Assembly: GCA_964515005.1 (NCBI GenBank)
Contig: CAZEVT010000003.1
Coordinates: 12,815 to 76,814, forward strand
DNA: 64,000 nucleotides
From: an uncultured Gammaproteobacteria bacterium
Lineage (GTDB): Bacteria > Patescibacteriota > Microgenomatia > UBA10105 > UBA927
Reading direction: 5' to 3'
The notes under the pieces are model-generated. The model saw only the letters and a program-made list of their open reading frames with translations, had not been told where the DNA came from and did not search any database. Numbering within the stretch: position 1 is the first letter of the stretch; the number at the start of each line of letters is the position of its first letter. The position numbers were made by a program, and so were the translations under genes. Below, in pieces: positions 42,072 through 52,775 of this stretch.

Positions 42072-42207
42072 TAGAATTTCGACACGCTTAATACTTTGCC
42101 CGTATAAGCGAAAGACTACTTGGATCATTTACAGGCAACTTTTATAATGAAAGGACCGTGAGGTTTCGTTAAGCGTAAAAGGCAAAGGTCGAAATTTCAC
42201 AACCCGG
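42064..42207. repeat. 20-bp imperfect terminal inverted repeat bracketing a ~100-bp spacer (MITE-like or structured element)
   Basis: CCGGGTAGTAGAATTTCGAC (42064-42083) is matched by the reverse complement of GTCGAAATTTCACAACCCGG (42188-42207), 17 of 20 positions. Confidence 0.5.
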
Positions 42208-42208
42208 T

Positions 42209-42742
42209 ATGAAGATAGGGATTGATATTAGTCAGATAGTACACGAGGGAACTGGCGTGGCAACCTATGTGCGGCGCATGGTGGAAACGCTACTGAAAAC
42301 TGATAAAAAGAATGAGTACGTTTTGTTTGGTGCATCTCTGCGGTTGCGAGGTGAATTTCAGTCATTTTACAATACATTGCCCCACGAACGGGTTCGGCTA
42401 GTTACGGTTCCCATTCCGCCGACACTGCTTGACATTCTATGGAACCGACTCCATGTTATGCCGGTTGAGAAATTTATCGGTCCCGTGGATGTATTTTGGA
42501 GCAGCGACTGGACCCAACCGCCAATGAGTGCAAAGGGGGTAACGACGATTCACGATCTTACAACCATGAAGTTTCCGAGTGAAATGGACGGACGTATCGT
42601 GCAAACACACGCACGAAGGCTTGCGTGGGTGAAAAAAGAATGTCAGGCAATTTTTTGCGACAGTGAATCTACAAAAAAAGACGTGATGAAACTTCTGGGT
42701 TTTCCGGGAGACAAATTACATGTCATATATCCAGGCATATGA
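42209..42742 (+). CDS. GT4 N-terminal-domain-only protein (half glycosyltransferase; possible remnant)
   Basis: 177 aa with MKIGIDIS...TIHDLT...VIYPGI, then a stop exactly at the GT-B inter-domain boundary. Homologous to the N-half at 51730. Confidence 0.55.
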   Translation: MKIGIDISQIVHEGTGVATYVRRMVETLLKTDKKNEYVLFGASLRLRGEFQSFYNTLPHERVRLVTVPIPPTLLDILWNRLHVMPVEKFIGPVDVFWSSDWTQPPMSAKGVTTIHDLTTMKFPSEMDGRIVQTHARRLAWVKKECQAIFCDSESTKKDVMKLLGFPGDKLHVIYPGI

Positions 42743-43845
42743 ATATTGGAATAGATGGCTATGAAGCAAATATTGAAAATCGAGTCGGAATTGGACGTTA
42801 TGCCTTTGAAATTCTTACGCATCTTTATCCGATAGCCGGGCACCATACGGTAACGGTATTTTTACCATCAAAACCTCTCCCACATATGCCGAAAGAAACA
42901 TCACGCTGGCGCTACCGGGTTGCCGGACCGGCAAACTTATGGACATTTATCGGGTTGCCCTGGGCCATGAAAGCGGTGCATCTGGATGTTATGTATTCGC
43001 CGACGCATTATATTCCTAGGTTTACGTCCGCGCCTCGGGTTATGGCGATTATGGATATTTCCTATCTCAAATATCCCGAGCTTTTTGAGGTCAAAGACCT
43101 CTATCAGCTGCAGCACTGGACGGCATATTCGGTGGCCCACGCCCGGTCGATTTTTACGATCAGCCAGGCCTCCAAAAATGATATAATAGATGCATACAAC
43201 GTACCGGCCTCCAAGGTCGTCGTGACGTATCCCGGTTTTACTATGACTACTGCGTCAAATGTCCCAAGTAAATATAAGATATCAAAAAACTATATTCTGT
43301 CGGTCGGAACAATCCAGCCTCGAAAAAACTTCACGAAGCTCATTGAAGCGTTTGCACTGTTCGTTAAGGAAAACAAGCAAAAGTTTGCAGATTTGGAGCT
43401 TGTGATCATCGGGAAAAAGGGATGGCTTTACGGAGAGATTCTTGAAGCTCCGAAAAAATACGGAGTCGCGGAGCGTGTAAAATTCTTGGATTTTGTGCCG
43501 GAATCTGACTTGCCGAGTTTTTACGCGCATGCCTTATGCTTTGCGCTTCCGAGCTTATACGAGGGATTCGGATTGACCGTTTTGGAGGCGATGGCATACA
43601 GGTGCCCGGTCGTCGTTTCCCGCGTATCCAGTTTACCGGAAATTGCGGGAAAGGCAGGGGTCTATGTAGACCCCGAGAGCGCCCAAAGCATTGCCGAGGG
43701 GCTTTTGACTGCCGTGCGGCAAAGAAATCTAGTGCAGGGAACAAGCAGGGTTCGCGTGGGGCGCGAGCAAGTCAGTAAGTTTACATGGGAAAAGGCAGCT
43801 AGGCAAACACTGGCGGTTCTTGAAGATGTAGGAGGGAAATCATGA
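42739..43845 (+). CDS. GT4 family glycosyltransferase
   Basis: Full length, with [18 protein letters not shown]. Confidence 0.85.
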
Positions 43846-44405
43846 GACTATTTATCGATTTTTGGGTATTTCTTTGTACACTCACGGGGTATATCCCTAG
43901 CCACATCATTCGACTGTTTTTGTATCGGACACTGTTTGGTGTACGAATAGGCAAAGATTCTTCCATACACTGGCGGGCCGAGTTTAATCAACCTATGGGT
44001 GTTAGTATCGGACATAATACCGTCATTGGAAACGATGCATTTTTGGACGGGCGGATGAAGCAGTTTTTGTCATATCGCAAAACCCATGGGTCGCCGCTGA
44101 CAATCGGCAACAACGTTTCGATTGCGGGAGAGGTGCGCATCTACACCATGGAACATGATATCGACTCTCCTGACTTTACCGAAGTGGGCACACCGGTCGT
44201 TATCGACGACTACGCGGTTATAGGAACGCGCGTCACGATCCTTCCCGGGGTACACATCGGAAAGGGTGCAGTTGTGGCATCGGGCGCCGTAGTGACGAAG
44301 GATGTCGGTGAGTATGAAGTCGTAGGAGGGGTGCCTGCCAAACTCATCAAAGAAAGGTCCAAAGATCTCCGCTACACACTGAAATTTGCGAGGCTCTTTC
44401 AGTAA
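43842..44405 (+). CDS. Hexapeptide-repeat (left-handed beta-helix) sugar O-acetyltransferase
   Basis: Tandem [LIV]-G-x-x-x-x hexapeptides ([38 protein letters not shown]), 187 aa. Confidence 0.8.
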
Positions 44406-44407
44406 GT

Positions 44408-45277
44408 ATGGATCTATCCATCATCATCCCCAGTTTTAACACAAAACACCTCACCACGCGCTGCCTGCGGTCTATTGTCGAGACCCTCAAGCGGTCTACG
44501 CTCACATACGAGATTATTGTCATAGATAACGCGTCAACAGACGGTACCGTTTCGGTTTTGAACAATGATTTTCCTCAAGTAATAAAAATACTCAATAAGA
44601 CTAATGTAGGCTATGGTACAGCCAACAACCAAGGATTAGCCGCGGCAAAGGGCACGTATGCCCTGATGCTCAATTCCGACATTGATGCGTTAAACGGCTC
44701 ATTAGAAAACCTTATGGACTTTGCCAAAACCCATCCTAAATCGTTTGTCGGCGGCAAGCTATACAACGAAGACGGATCGCTGCAGCCTTCATGCGGTCCG
44801 ATGTTTACTCCGTGGTACGTCTTTCTTATGCTTTTTTTCCAGGCTGATGAGCTTCGCGTGACCCGGTATTCGCCCGACGAAGTGAAGAGGGTTGAATGGG
44901 TATCTGGTGCGTGCCTGTTGGGCACCAAAAAGGCGTTTTATGACGTCGGGCTATTTGATCAGAGTATTTTTATGTATATGGACGAGATTGAGCTTTTGTA
45001 CCGTGCTGGCAAAAAGGGTTACAAGGTCTGGTTTATCCCGGACGCCCGCTTTATCCATACGGGTGCGGCTTCAAGCGGCAACAAGCGCTCGCCGGTCAAA
45101 AACATTTTTCGGGGGCTCATGTTTTTCTACCGCAAGCACTATTCGCCGTTTGCCGTCATGATGTTGAAGGGCATGCTGACTCTCAAGGCGTATATCGCCA
45201 TTACAATCGGGAAATTGTTGAAAAAACAGGATTTGGTTCAAATTTATGAAGAAGGCCTTCAACTGGTTAACGAGTAA
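44408..45277 (+). CDS. GT2 family glycosyltransferase
   Basis: LSIIIPSFNT...IIVIDNASTDGT...LNSDID. Confidence 0.85.
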   Translation: MDLSIIIPSFNTKHLTTRCLRSIVETLKRSTLTYEIIVIDNASTDGTVSVLNNDFPQVIKILNKTNVGYGTANNQGLAAAKGTYALMLNSDIDALNGSLENLMDFAKTHPKSFVGGKLYNEDGSLQPSCGPMFTPWYVFLMLFFQADELRVTRYSPDEVKRVEWVSGACLLGTKKAFYDVGLFDQSIFMYMDEIELLYRAGKKGYKVWFIPDARFIHTGAASSGNKRSPVKNIFRGLMFFYRKHYSPFAVMMLKGMLTLKAYIAITIGKLLKKQDLVQIYEEGLQLVNE

Positions 45278-48242
45278 TATAGGACTGCTTGCCATCCTAT
45301 TTTTCACGGCGTTTATTCCGCTGTATCCCAAGCTGCCGCTGATCAATGTGATCCGGACCTGGGTGTATGTGCGGCTTGAGGATTTTCTGGTCGCCGCGGC
45401 AATCGGCATCTATATCCTCATTCGCTTCCGGCGCAGGAGTATCCCCAAAACGCCGCTCACGTGGCCCATTCTTTTCTACTGGAGCATAGGAACGGTTTCT
45501 GCGGTATTTTCACTCCTTTTTATAGGGCCGCACCTGGAGGGGTACTTTCCGCATCTGGTTGCGCTGCACTTTATCCGGCGCGTTGAGTACATGATGCTCT
45601 TTTTCATGGCCTACGACGTCATTGTTCATGAAAAATCCCGTGTTAATGCTTTAGTGTGGACGCTTGCCGCAACGATGCTGGGCATCATCATTTACGGGGC
45701 CGCGCAGAAGTTTTTGGGATGGCCGGCGTATCTGACCATGAATGAGGAATTTGCCAAAGGGATTCCTCTGCGGCTTCCGCCGACAGCCCGCATTCCTTCG
45801 ACTTTCGGGGGGCATTATGATCTTGCGGCCTACATTGTACTTACTATCCCTATTTTGGCGACGCTTGTATTTGCAGTACAAAAGTTTTGGCAGAAAATTG
45901 TTTTTTTCGCGCTGTCGGTGGGGGCGCTTGTACTTCTTCTTTTTACTGCGTCCCGTACCTCGTTTCTTGTCTATTTGATTGCCGTATCCGCCACGCTTTG
46001 GTGGTACAAAAAGAAATGGTTTATTGTCCCGGTCATCCTTTTTAGTTTTTGGCTTCTCAATTACGTCGGAGTGGCGACTGACCGGTTCTACAAGACGTTT
46101 CGTTTTTCTGACATCATCGTAGATCTATCCACAGGAAGACCAGTGGGGACGCTCGATAAGCTTGAGGGGACAAGCGCAGTTATCAAGGAATCCGAATCTC
46201 CGGCAGAAGAAAGTTTACCCACGGGTAGTCAGTACATCGGGCTTCCCTCCGGCCAGTTGGCGCAGGAACAGGCCAAAACGATAGAAATATACAAAAGCCT
46301 AGATTTGGCCACTGCGTCGGGAGAAATCGCCACTATCTCTGGCAGTTTCCTCATCCAGAAAGCGCTCGTCTATGACATATCCATAACGACCAGATTTCAG
46401 GGGCAGTGGCCCAAAGCTCTCGCGGCTTTCAAAAGAAACATTTTTTTGGGAAGCGGGTATTCGACGCTTTCACTTGCCGCAGACGGAGACTACATGCGGA
46501 TGCTTGGAGAAACCGGTCTTTTGGGAACCATAGCATTTTTGGGAATTATTGTCGCGGCGTTTGTCTTTTTCTTCCGAAGGAAAGAGACACTTAGCGGTAT
46601 TCCCAAAGCGTATGTTGTTGGGGTATTCGGCGGACTCACCGGGCTACTACTCAACGGCATCCTCATAGACGTCTTTGAGGCGTCCAAAGTCGCATTTTCA
46701 CTATGGCTTCTTTTAGGAGTCGCGATGGCTCTTTTGGCGGTAAAAGAACTGTCACCGAGGAGTTATTTCAAGCTCATGTGGAAAGCGCTGACTTCAAACG
46801 CCGCTTTGCTTTTTTACCTTTTTACGGCAGGCGCGGTACTATTCGGAAGCGCCGTGTCGCATTATTTTTTGGGTGATGACTTCACGTGGCTCAAATGGGC
46901 GACGCAAACCTCATTTGCCGATATATCCCAACTGTTTACCGATTCTGAAGGATTTTTCTACCGTCCTATCCCCAAGCTTTGGTACATGATTCTCTATGCG
47001 TTGTTTTGGCTCAAACCCGAAGGGTACCATGTCATGTCGATCATTCTTTTAGGTGCAAGTTCGTACCTTTTGTTTCTCATCATGCGCCTCACCGGCGTTA
47101 AGCGCACGTTCGCGTTTCTTGCCAGCTTACTCTTTGCCGTGCTTTCGATTCATCATGAAAATGTGTTTTGGATATCCGGGCACAGCAGTTTGCTCTCCGG
47201 AGTATTTTTGTTTGGGAGCATATACGCATACCTTAGGCAGGCGGGTGGCCGCGGAATTTGGAGGGCGGGGCTATGGGTGTTTTCGATGATCCTGGTGATG
47301 CTCTCCATGCTTTCCTATGACGGCATGCTGGTGGCGCCCATAATTCTATCTCTTGTCGGGTGGTTTGTGGTGAAGAAAAAACACGTTACCACATTCATTC
47401 CACTTCTTGCGATTCCTCTGTACTGGTGGGTGCGTACCGCAAGTGGAGCGGTACCGCCTTCCGGGGATTATGGATATAGGCTCAGCGCATTACCCTTTAA
47501 TATTCTGGGCAACAGTGTCGGATATATTGTTTCCGCGTTTTTGGGTCCCCGTATCATGGAAGTTATGAGTGGAGTTCGCACCTATCTGCGGGAAAATCAA
47601 ATGATTGCAGCGGGAGGGGGGGCACTCACTATCGCGGCATTTTCGTTTGTCGCATGGAAGGTAAGGCGCGAAATCGGCACGTATAAAAACGCACTTATAT
47701 GGTTGATTGCGGGGTTTGTTGCCTTGGCTGCCTACGTCGGATTGGGCGGGATGAGCGAACGCTACACATTTGCCGCAAGCGGCTTTTTCGTGATATCTGC
47801 AGGAGCATATGTGTCCACATTGTGGGAGAAAGGCACACGAACGATTTGGAAAATAATTGTGGCCTTTTCGTTTGTCGCACTTATTGTTTGGAACATCGCA
47901 GAAGTGACACGTGTAAGCCGCGATTGGAAAAAAGCTGGTGAGACTTCGCAGCGCTCACTCGTGACGTTGAGCAAAATGTTTTTCCCTCTTAAAGAACAAA
48001 AAAGCTTTGTATTTATCAATATGCCGATTCGCTATGGCCGCGCCTGGATATTTCCGACGGGACTTGCGGATCCGTTGTGGCACGTTTTTCGTTTAAGTGA
48101 TTGGCGCTATACCGTAACGAATGTTTCTACCCCGCAGGAAGCCTATGCGTTGCCCATCACCCAGGGGTATACACCGGAAGTCTTTATTTTCGACAATTTT
48201 ACCCTAAAGCGACTCGTGAAAGAGATTCAGGTAGTTCAATAG
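45246..48242 (+). CDS. Fusion membrane protein: O-antigen ligase/polymerase-like (Wzy_C) domain + second GT-C-like polytopic domain
   Basis: 998 aa. The N-half carries FTASRTSF and STFGGHYDLAAY loop motifs typical of the WaaL/Wzy_C family. The C-half (about aa 500 onward) is a further TM bundle of roughly 12 helices with an SIHHENVFWISGH loop. Confidence 0.5.
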   Translation: MKKAFNWLTSNIGLLAILFFTAFIPLYPKLPLINVIRTWVYVRLEDFLVAAAIGIYILIRFRRRSIPKTPLTWPILFYWSIGTVSAVFSLLFIGPHLEGYFPHLVALHFIRRVEYMMLFFMAYDVIVHEKSRVNALVWTLAATMLGIIIYGAAQKFLGWPAYLTMNEEFAKGIPLRLPPTARIPSTFGGHYDLAAYIVLTIPILATLVFAVQKFWQKIVFFALSVGALVLLLFTASRTSFLVYLIAVSATLWWYKKKWFIVPVILFSFWLLNYVGVATDRFYKTFRFSDIIVDLSTGRPVGTLDKLEGTSAVIKESESPAEESLPTGSQYIGLPSGQLAQEQAKTIEIYKSLDLATASGEIATISGSFLIQKALVYDISITTRFQGQWPKALAAFKRNIFLGSGYSTLSLAADGDYMRMLGETGLLGTIAFLGIIVAAFVFFFRRKETLSGIPKAYVVGVFGGLTGLLLNGILIDVFEASKVAFSLWLLLGVAMALLAVKELSPRSYFKLMWKALTSNAALLFYLFTAGAVLFGSAVSHYFLGDDFTWLKWATQTSFADISQLFTDSEGFFYRPIPKLWYMILYALFWLKPEGYHVMSIILLGASSYLLFLIMRLTGVKRTFAFLASLLFAVLSIHHENVFWISGHSSLLSGVFLFGSIYAYLRQAGGRGIWRAGLWVFSMILVMLSMLSYDGMLVAPIILSLVGWFVVKKKHVTTFIPLLAIPLYWWVRTASGAVPPSGDYGYRLSALPFNILGNSVGYIVSAFLGPRIMEVMSGVRTYLRENQMIAAGGGALTIAAFSFVAWKVRREIGTYKNALIWLIAGFVALAAYVGLGGMSERYTFAASGFFVISAGAYVSTLWEKGTRTIWKIIVAFSFVALIVWNIAEVTRVSRDWKKAGETSQRSLVTLSKMFFPLKEQKSFVFINMPIRYGRAWIFPTGLADPLWHVFRLSDWRYTVTNVSTPQEAYALPITQGYTPEVFIFDNFTLKRLVKEIQVVQ

Positions 48243-50874: not shown

Positions 50875-51733
50875 ACTTTCGATCATCATCGTCAACTTTA
50901 ATACCAAAGACATCACTCGCGCATGTCTGGATTCCATACGGAAATGGTCGGAAGGGCGCCCGTGGGAAATCATCATGGTCGACAACGGCTCGACTGACGG
51001 CAGCGTCGAGATGCTCGAGAAGTACCCGGGAATTACCCTCATTTTAAACAAAAAAAATTTGGGATTTGCGAAGGCGAATAACAAAGGGATAAAGGTTGCC
51101 AAGGGAAAATATATCCTCCTTTTGAATTCCGATACAGAGATCCATCAGGATTCCGTCCAAACCATGCTGCGATTTATGGATGGGCATCTGAAGGCAGGCG
51201 CGGCTACGTGCAAGCTGGAACTCATGGACGGCACAATGGATCCTGCGTGCCACCGGGGATTTCCTACTCCCTGGGCATCATTGAGCTATCTTCTCGGACT
51301 TGAGAAACTGTTCCCAAAATCCCGGCTATTTGCCGGCTATCACCTTGGGTACAAAAATATGGATATTCCGCACCAGGTGGATTGCGTAAGCGGTGCCTTT
51401 TTTATGGCCCGCCGCGAAGCGATTGACGCGGTAGGAGTACTTGACGAAGATTATTTTTTCTATGCCGAAGATATCGACTGGGCATACCGTTTCAAGAAAA
51501 AAGGGTGGGAGATCTGGTTTAATCCGGAAGCCACGGTTCTGCATAAGAAGAAACAAAGCGGGAGGGCAAATGTACTACGATCTCGACAAATCAAAACCGA
51601 GATGTACTTCCATACGTACAACTGGCTCTTCTTTAAAAAACACTATGCGAAAAAATATGGTCCGTTGGTCTCGATCCCCGTGAGCATTTTTTATACGATC
51701 CGCTTGTTTTTGCTCAAAAACTTTTCTCTATGA
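50858..51733 (+). CDS. GT2 family glycosyltransferase
   Basis: LSIIIVNFNT...IIMVDNGSTDGS...LNSDTE. The likely start is ATG 50858. Confidence 0.85.
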   Translation: MNTATELSIIIVNFNTKDITRACLDSIRKWSEGRPWEIIMVDNGSTDGSVEMLEKYPGITLILNKKNLGFAKANNKGIKVAKGKYILLLNSDTEIHQDSVQTMLRFMDGHLKAGAATCKLELMDGTMDPACHRGFPTPWASLSYLLGLEKLFPKSRLFAGYHLGYKNMDIPHQVDCVSGAFFMARREAIDAVGVLDEDYFFYAEDIDWAYRFKKKGWEIWFNPEATVLHKKKQSGRANVLRSRQIKTEMYFHTYNWLFFKKHYAKKYGPLVSIPVSIFYTIRLFLLKNFSL

Positions 51734-52260
51734 AGATTGGCATTGATGCGCGCCTTATCGACGAAACCGGAGTTGGGAGATATATCCGGAACCTTATAGT
51801 GGAACTGGGAAAGATTGATAAGACAAATTCATACGTTGTCTTTTTACGGAAACGTTCCTACGGCGATTTCGTTGCGCCGAATGCGCGCTGGCAAAAACGG
51901 CTTGCGGACGTGCCATGGCATAGCGTCGCCGAACAATTATTTATGCCGGCGATATTTAATGGGGGGAAATTGGATCTCCTCCATGTGCCGTACTTCAACG
52001 TCCCGCTTTTGTACTTTGGGAAATTTATTGTGACGATCCATGATTTAACCGTTCTTCACGTTCATACCGGTAAGGCAAGTACCCTCCCATATTTTTTCTA
52101 TCAAATCCGGCGGTTGGGATATCATCTGTCACTACTAAAAGCGCTTTCCTGGGCAGAAAAGATTATTGCGGTGTCGGGGGCAACGAAGAAAGAAATTACC
52201 GATCATTTTGATGTGCTGCCCGCGGATATTACGGTGATTTACGAAGGGGGATCGTTATGA
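51730..52260 (+). CDS. GT4 glycosyltransferase, N-terminal half (split gene)
   Basis: 176 aa with MKIGIDAR...TIHDLT...VIYEGGSL, then a stop. A G5 tract lies at 52246-52250 just before the stop. Confidence 0.6.
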   Translation: MKIGIDARLIDETGVGRYIRNLIVELGKIDKTNSYVVFLRKRSYGDFVAPNARWQKRLADVPWHSVAEQLFMPAIFNGGKLDLLHVPYFNVPLLYFGKFIVTIHDLTVLHVHTGKASTLPYFFYQIRRLGYHLSLLKALSWAEKIIAVSGATKKEITDHFDVLPADITVIYEGGSL

Positions 52261-52775
52261 AGACGCCGTATTTTCTCTATGTTGGAAATGCATATCCTCA
52301 TAAAAACCTGGAAATTCTTATAGACGCATTTGCTGCGCTCGGCGGCGATACCACGCTTGTCCTGGTGGGAAAAGATGATTATTTTTATAAACGGCTGAAA
52401 CAAAGTGAACGAGTGAAGACGCTGGGAAACAGAATTGTTTTTAAAACGAGTGTATCGGATAGAGAACTGGGAAGTTTGTACCGCGATGCGCAAGCATTTG
52501 TATTTCCGTCGCTCATGGAAGGCTTCGGATTGCCTGCCATCGAAGCACTTGCCCATGGTTGTCCGGTCATTTGTTCGGATATACCCGTCTTTCATGAGAT
52601 TCTTGGTGAGGCAGCAACATACTTCGATCCGAACGACGTCGACCGCCTTACAAAAATTCTCGCGGTTGCCCTAGAAAAAAGACCCAGAGTCGACGGGAGT
52701 ATCGTAAAGAAGTATTCCTGGCAAAAAATGGCTAAGGAGACATTATCTGTATATGAAAATCGGTCTCGTCTATGA
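52257..52775 (+). CDS. GT4 glycosyltransferase, C-terminal half (split gene)
   Basis: 172 aa with PYFLYVGN...EGFGLPAIEALAHGCPVI. Starts 4 bp inside the preceding half's stop. Confidence 0.65.
   Translation: MKTPYFLYVGNAYPHKNLEILIDAFAALGGDTTLVLVGKDDYFYKRLKQSERVKTLGNRIVFKTSVSDRELGSLYRDAQAFVFPSLMEGFGLPAIEALAHGCPVICSDIPVFHEILGEAATYFDPNDVDRLTKILAVALEKRPRVDGSIVKKYSWQKMAKETLSVYENRSRL

Follow-up and report, generated by a model that had tools for sequence, protein, structure and literature searches.

GT-B glycosyltransferases are textbook two-domain enzymes. Their N-domain makes the contacts with the acceptor and the membrane, and their C-domain binds the nucleotide sugar (general knowledge; see also PMC10937113). 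The 64-kb stretch of DNA analysed here (64,000 nucleotides, hereafter the window) contains, within a glycan gene cluster, a gene that encodes just the first of these halves and overlaps a complete glycosyltransferase gene. This raises the question of how such a half-gene arose, whether it is a functional gene at all, and what its product could do. The genes at the centre of this question are the following.

42209..42742, + strand: ORF A, a free-standing GT4 N-terminal (acceptor-side) Rossmann domain of 177 aa (MKIGIDIS...TIHDLT...VIYPGI*), matching PF13439 only
42739..42742, + strand: ATGA stop/start overlap of ORF A and ORF B (ggc ata tga / atg aat att)
42739..43845, + strand: ORF B, a complete GT4 (N- and C-domain) of 368 aa downstream of ORF A, matching PF00534 (E 5e-34) and, weakly, PF13439

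The 177-aa reading frame is present as described in the original prediction, and Pfam assigns it to the GT4 N-domain and to nothing else. PF13439 (Glyco_transf_4) covers residues 16-177 of ORF A (profile positions 3-166 of 170; E 2.3e-11; 44.5 bits against a cut-off of 28.5), and PF00534 (Glycos_transf_1) does not match, which means that ORF A is not a complete GT4-type GT-B enzyme; it stops one residue past the YPG strand. Because the missing PF00534 half is the one that binds the nucleotide sugar, ORF A alone cannot transfer sugar. The gene that follows was correctly recognized at the outset as a complete GT4 rather than a C-half, as ORF B contains both PF13439 and PF00534. ORF A has no family match in NCBIfam, and a scan for promoter and terminator sites around it found no excess over shuffled sequence.

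In relatives, the gene block runs from two epimerase/dehydratase genes through A, B, a hexapeptide acyltransferase, a GT2, and a Wzy_C-type membrane protein of about 1000 aa, and continues with a PMT_2 protein, a GT4, a GT2, the genes C and D (described below), another GT4, a ManC-like nucleotidyltransferase, and a Bac_transf initiating transferase. The window genes directly following ORF B fit into this order.

43842..44405, + strand: hexapeptide-repeat acyltransferase (PF00132 in orthologues; 64-87% identity across loci)
44408..45277, + strand: GT2 glycosyltransferase (PF00535 in orthologues; gene order kept)
45246..48242, + strand: membrane protein of 998 aa, Wzy_C-type in an orthologue (PF04932 on the L001 orthologue; gene order kept)

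A 137-nt spacer (window 42072-42208) precedes ORF A, and the same is seen in L013 and other loci; several close relatives carry a gene of about 520 aa with no Pfam match between the second epimerase and A (L001:4426-5988, L004:4418-5983). Many of the species-representative metagenome-assembled genomes with this cluster (L015-L091) are titled 'uncultured Gammaproteobacteria bacterium' (binchicken/SRP co-assemblies) and one 'Acidobacteria bacterium'. Judging by the gene content and the 50-70% identity to Gottesmanbacteria proteins, such titles appear to be mislabels.

A search with ORF A against 5.8 billion proteins returned 1299 matches, and the statements made here rest on the best 120. These 120 proteins are 154-197 aa long and 60-83% identical to ORF A, those with a name belong to Candidatus Gottesmanbacteria, and their Pfam matches are confined to the N-domain (PF13439, in a few also PF13579). 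Altogether, short orthologues occur in more than 100 protein clusters, in assemblies from many studies. A one-genome-per-species scan provided the check on related genomes that had been proposed together with the original prediction, and it did bring up stand-alone GT4 N-domain genes: 55 of its 80 loci, mostly Candidatus Gottesmanbacteria, have an A of 160-198 aa directly 5' of a B orthologue. The junction between the two genes is a 4-nt overlap in 27 of these 55 species and a gap of 3-12 nt in another 16, so that 43 have an overlap or a very short gap; the remaining 12 have 35-1645 nt between A and B. No C-domain remnants were found in the longer gaps of these 12 species. At least three of the longer gaps carry inserted genes, each in a single species (L020:4553-4944, L015:1522-2086, L066:2474-4118); the inserts comprise a GIY-YIG-like gene and an NYN/LabA-like gene, both by our own reading of the sequence, and a PMT-like membrane protein of about 550 aa. 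Tight translational coupling of A to B is thus dispensable. The possibility of a programmed frameshift that fuses A and B was also considered and is ruled out by the junction, which is not conserved and contains overlaps, gaps, or whole inserted genes.

The short form evolves as a protein-coding gene under constraint. Among seven species pairs with dS below 1.5, the dN/dS ratio of ORF A is 0.07-0.23 in six and 0.37 in the seventh, and that of ORF B in the same pairs is 0.10-0.18. Comparison of the window ORF A with every relative gave pN values of 0.13-0.40, with pS saturated at 0.70-0.98, and an alignment of 90 family sequences has 34 invariant columns. The two neighbours have not diverged equally everywhere: in the sub-clade formed by L068, L070, L071, and L077, A has only 44-46% identity to the window, far less than the 63-67% of B. 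ORF A is therefore a real, long-conserved gene kept by purifying selection.

The relatives of ORF A also indicate where it came from. Among 50%-identity representatives, an exhaustive HMMER search found two short relatives (182 and 193 aa), followed by full-length GT4s of about 362-391 aa. The full-length relatives are 45-55% identical to ORF A (the closest 52-55%) and align to it over their residues 1 to about 177. In 18 more distant species, which where named are Roizmanbacteria, Woesebacteria, or other Microgenomates, a full-length GT4 occupies the position of A, directly before the B orthologue and the acyltransferase; its length is 332 aa in one species and 357-387 aa in the other 17. A neighbour-joining tree of the N-domains places all 53 short A forms in one clade, which adjoins the full-length syntenic forms. 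This clade has diverged down to 44% identity, and hence the truncation must be old. The simplest history that these sequence comparisons support is that the C-domain of A was deleted once, long ago, and the N-domain retained. In this history, an ancestor of the Gottesmanbacteria-type lineage carried A-full and B as tandem full-length GT4 genes at the head of a surface-glycan cluster; a single deletion took out the donor-binding C-domain of A-full, from just past the V-I-Y-P-G strand to the start of B, and the leftover N-domain of 160-198 aa has been retained under purifying selection.

About 9.5 kb downstream of A and B, the window contains a second GT4 N-half, which is followed by a C-half.

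51730..52260, + strand: ORF C, the N-subunit of a split GT4, 176 aa (...VIYEGGSL*), matching PF13439 only (residues 14-173; profile positions 3-165 of 170)
52257..52260, + strand: ATGA stop/start overlap of ORF C and ORF D, seen in the sequence
52257..52775, + strand: ORF D, the C-subunit (donor-binding half), 172 aa, matching PF00534 only (profile positions 14-159)

The exact sequence of ORF C is on record as P0121. Its family, for which NCBIfam has no model, has members of 169-177 aa with 49-84% identity, and in every short-C context inspected the next gene is a PF00534-only gene, with an overlap of 4, 11, or 14 nt. Relatives that read through the domain boundary have the order ...VTYEG, a linker of 12 to about 40 aa, and YFLYVGNAYPHKNLE..., and ORF D opens with MKTPYFLYVGNAYPHKNLE, the motif that stands after the linker in these fused relatives; C and D together are therefore one GT4 minus its linker. 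They are separate, adjacent genes that jointly cover one GT-B enzyme end to end, which is not the case for ORF A, where a complete GT4 comes next. On this sequence evidence, the products of C and D are predicted to have to reassemble as a two-chain GT-B enzyme. A metagenome scan added 80 loci: in 62 the C reading frame exceeds 200 aa and runs past the boundary, and in 14 C is short and D comes next.

The C/D split and the truncation of A do not go hand in hand. A short A occurs together with a fused C-D gene in at least seven loci (L113, L115, L122, L123, L127, L140, and L143) and with split C and D genes in the window, L008, L093, L107, and L132. From these mixed loci we conclude that the truncation of A is the older and more widespread of two independent events, and, since A is short where C-D is still fused, that ORF A cannot depend on a free D. 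In a neighbour-joining tree of the C family, the short forms fall into two well-separated clades (22 and 82 leaves) with fused forms between them, apart from a few isolated short forms. This rough distance tree suggests that the fission may have arisen at least twice at the same boundary, with re-fusion also possible. The overlap of C and D differs among lineages, being 11 nt in L008 (10001-10997) and L107 (10001-10979), 14 nt in L010 (6001-7066), and 4 nt in the window, and these three geometries show that the junction has been remodelled while the split was maintained, a persistence that indirectly favours the idea that the two chains would bind each other. In the 11-nt forms the ATG of D lies inside the TAT-GAA codons of the conserved Y-E-G. 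By our inference, an out-of-frame deletion of the linker could create the stop of the N-half and the start of the C-half in one step. A different kind of break is seen in L094:3530-4690 and L095:6616-7697, in which the C-D orthologue is fused across the boundary and broken later, inside the C-domain, into pieces of 277 + 97 aa and 243 + 90 aa with gaps of 34-78 nt. Unlike the clean split at the linker, these breaks look like genuine decay or sequencing frameshifts.

The ends of ORFs A and C can now be compared directly. The two proteins are 29% identical across their entire length, and pairwise and multiple alignments both pair G176 of A with G173 of C. Both stop where the last N-domain strand closes and the inter-domain linker begins. 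The original prediction that they end at the identical residue holds at the level of the domain boundary, but not to the residue: past the V-I-Y-(P/E)-G strand, A runs for one residue and C for three, so that the end-points lie within two residues of each other. We estimate the chance that two random truncations of a protein of about 370 aa would land this close at about 1%. At 29% identity, and with much closer full-length relatives for each, the shared end-point is convergent and not inherited. The coincidence is explained by the GT-B architecture, in which the domain boundary is the sole cut that leaves foldable halves. The two truncations had been proposed to be independent, and this is borne out by the low identity, the closer full-length relatives of each, and their different phyletic distributions. 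The argument that the halves are not products of random decay likewise stands, as the short forms of both A and C are conserved families under purifying selection. The further proposal that stand-alone N-domains recur here needs to be narrowed. What recurs in the cluster is truncation or fission at the boundary (A, C/D, and the B gene of one relative, described next), and only A is a true orphan. ORF C is not a functional stand-alone N-domain; it is an N-subunit whose C-subunit, D, is encoded immediately afterwards, and many relatives have the two as a single fused gene. With HMMs built from the N- and C-domains, no half-GT4 reading frames beyond A, C, and D were found in the window, which leaves D as its sole free C-domain.

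Some observations on ORF B may be added. In L015:2087-3159 (metagenome-assembled genome, contig CAYWVJ010000009.1), B itself is cut into an N-half and a C-half that starts with MKNYILSVG; the two overlap by ATGA, a linker of about 14 aa is absent, and both the boundary and the geometry are those of C and D. This could be a third independent fission, or it could be a frameshift or an assembly error. Residues 103-105 of the window ORF B (window 43045-43053) are A-I-M in the motif A-I-M-D; in A, C, and the majority of GT4s of this type, I-H-D stands in place of I-M-D. Among the B orthologues in L013-L091, the methionine is present in all but one of the 53 short-A species and in five of 16 with a full-length A (L072, L073, L074, L084, and L086). 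Position 8 of B separates the two groups without exception, with a tyrosine in the 53 short-A species and an asparagine in the 16 full-length-A species. These correlations of B residues with the length of A count as a single event, since the short-A species are one clade. The idea that the change from I-H-D to I-M-D in B coincided with the truncation of A was rejected, since I-M-D is found in the five full-length-A species just named and the change therefore came first. ORFs B and D have no NCBIfam match above the cut-off, and their donor sugars are not assignable from it.

An AlphaFold2 model of ORF A built from 90 family members has a pLDDT of 92.1 and a pTM of 0.86 and shows a compact beta/alpha/beta domain. 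Foldseek against the PDB placed the GT-B proteins MshA, GlgM, PglA, and sucrose-phosphate synthase at the top, with query-normalised TM-scores of about 0.6. The N-domain motifs of the short clade (IDISQ, EGTGV, SDWTQPP, TIHD, CDSxxTKxD, and VYPG) show a conservation equal to or above that in the full-length orthologues; the mean frequency of the top residue is 0.67 in short A and 0.63 in the N-domain of the full-length orthologues. When the A family was used as a sequence profile to search the PDB, only chance matches came back, and these motifs are therefore not mappable to known active-site residues by that route. Three residues set the short form apart: W97, C145, and C150 (window 42497-42499, 42641-42643, and 42656-42658) are fixed in nearly all short A proteins, and the full-length syntenic orthologues have I or H, S, and A at these positions. 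The two cysteines flank one predicted beta-strand (residues 145-150). A substitution of histidine 97 by tryptophan was considered as a mark of lost catalysis and rejected, as the syntenic full-length orthologues mostly have isoleucine there.

What, then, does this domain do? We favour, as the probable answer, that ORF A is a functional free-standing GT4 N-domain gene, kept after loss of the C-domain, and that its product is most likely a non-catalytic partner of ORF B. The most likely role, as we infer it, is non-catalytic binding of an acceptor or a membrane: ORF A would attach to the lipid-linked acceptor or to the membrane and act with the adjacent, often translationally coupled B or with the whole assembly complex. 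The absence of a C-domain and the location directly upstream of B in 55 species fit an accessory subunit that sits next to its active paralogue. Adjacency by itself is no proof of partnership, because it was inherited from the full-length ancestor. Distance matrices of A and three of its neighbours gave a partial Mantel correlation of 0.35 with B (p = 0.001), compared with 0.13 and 0.08 for the acyltransferase and the GT2, respectively; this correlation is suggestive of a link between A and B, and shared recombination or local history could also yield it.

The intact N-domain motifs fit equally well with an A that still takes part in catalysis together with some C-domain. ORF A could be half of an active enzyme that docks in trans on a C-domain encoded elsewhere, such as the free D, an unseen orphan C-half, or the C-domain of B in alternation. 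Besides the full retention of the motifs in the short clade, the neighbouring C/D pair suggests that this lineage tolerates two-chain GT4s, and isolated GT-B halves from different enzymes are able to form active dimers (PMC10937113). We nevertheless consider this main rival unlikely, weakened as it is by the at least seven loci that combine a short A with a fused C-D and hence have no free D, by the descent of D, the only free C-domain of the window, from the same gene as C, and by the finding of no orphan C-half in the window or among the best 120 matches of the profile search described next. A profile made from the C-halves of the full-length relatives gave at least 8000 matches, the best 120 of which are mostly full-length proteins, and no relocated C-half was seen among these 120, nor is there a C-domain remnant between A and B. 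The few short or C-domain-only proteins among the 120 come from short contigs and none from the known Gottesmanbacteria contigs of about 1 Mb; P0506, the one that was inspected, is a fragment at a contig end. A variant of the same thought, in which A is an exchangeable acceptor-recognition module that alternates with the native N-domain on the C-domain of B or of another GT4 of the cluster, must be regarded as a long shot. If it were true, one catalytic C-domain would serve two acceptors; genome-reduced bacteria would then have a natural way to 'mix and match' GT-B halves, and the repeated splitting of GT4s in this cluster would belong to that strategy.

It is also rather improbable that ORF A has been recruited outside the glycan pathway, for example as a small-molecule-binding or regulatory protein of Rossmann type. 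The fixation of W97, C145, and C150 in the short clade alone and the lack of an NCBIfam family would agree with such a new role; however, the gene has remained part of the glycan cluster and immediately precedes B in each of the 55 species that show the short form and B, and its ancestral GT4 motifs have been kept rather than replaced. The overlaps and very short gaps in 43 of the 55 species could mean that A serves only as an upstream reading frame that feeds ribosomes to B, with its protein irrelevant. That is very hard to reconcile with selection at the amino-acid level, visible in the dN/dS values and the invariant columns, or with the 12 species in which A remains intact despite longer stretches, sometimes whole genes, before B, and we give it very little credence. 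Least credible is a recent pseudogene fragment or an artefact of assembly or frameshift. Half of the enzyme is indeed missing, and the exact ORF A sequence has no record in the gene-position index; yet more than 100 protein clusters and 55 species-level assemblies contain the short form without damage, purifying selection acts on it, its members make up one old clade, and the frame after its stop belongs to a different, complete gene. A pseudogene would have been expected to show a Ka/Ks near 1 and to be absent from relatives, and neither was found.

The preferred reading, a retained N-domain that acts as a non-catalytic partner, can be set beside several known systems. The GT-like proteins GtfB of streptococci and GAUT7 of plants, which work with GtfA and GAUT1, are non-catalytic partners that serve as acceptor-binding or anchoring subunits of an active paralogue. 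They have kept the full-length fold. ORF A is likewise derived from a glycosyltransferase and without catalytic capacity, but it became a single domain by deletion, and it is a putative partner of B. Its profile and its predicted fold match the N-terminal Rossmann domain of the full-length retaining GT4 enzymes MshA, PimA, and PglA, from which it differs by the absence of the entire PF00534 C-terminal domain. Natural two-chain GT-B enzymes have been described in the MurG-like lineage, namely Alg14/Alg13 and EpsE/EpsF (PMC8993221, PMC10937113), and it is to this MurG/Alg13-14/EpsE-F lineage that the natural two-chain GT-Bs we found described in the literature belong. As in C/D, the N- and C-halves of these enzymes are separate polypeptides; C and D are adjacent genes cut at the inter-domain boundary. 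In contrast to Alg14/Alg13 and EpsE/EpsF, which are inverting and of MurG type (Glyco_tran_28_C is named for Alg13; PMC8993221), C/D are of GT4 type, with PF13439 and PF00534, and their split is recent enough for sister lineages to have kept fused orthologues. The Pfam families reported on A, C, and D (PF13439, PF13579, PF00534, PF13692, and PF20706) are all of GT4 type, with none of MurG type. Therefore, despite the similar arrangement, C and D are not members of the MurG/Alg13/Alg14 family. ORF A differs from Alg14/Alg13 and EpsE/EpsF in having no C-half partner gene.

Isolated GT-B domains have been studied in laboratory constructs. When the N- and C-domains of plant UGT74 enzymes are expressed separately, they assemble by themselves into active dimers (PMC10937113), and the N-domain of EpsF alone, when overexpressed in S. 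thermophilus, changed the molecular mass and chain length of the polysaccharide (PMC7023835). ORF A, on the other hand, occurs naturally as a gene and has been maintained over a long evolutionary span. Our literature searches brought up no paper on half or split GT4 genes in Gottesmanbacteria.

The cluster shows clean fission of GT4s into overlapping genes in uncultivated, genome-reduced bacteria, by a rough tree more than once. As fused and split C-D orthologues exist side by side, they are ideal material for learning what the assembly of a two-chain GT-B enzyme needs. For annotation pipelines, such proteins are a problem of their own, because they are labelled 'glycosyltransferase' or 'hypothetical' even though A alone cannot be an enzyme. 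An N-domain that has outlived its catalytic half under long selection points to a role of its own for the acceptor-side domain. Should A turn out to be an adaptor for B, it would record one way in which an enzyme becomes a non-catalytic subunit and would provide natural parts for modular glycosyltransferase engineering.
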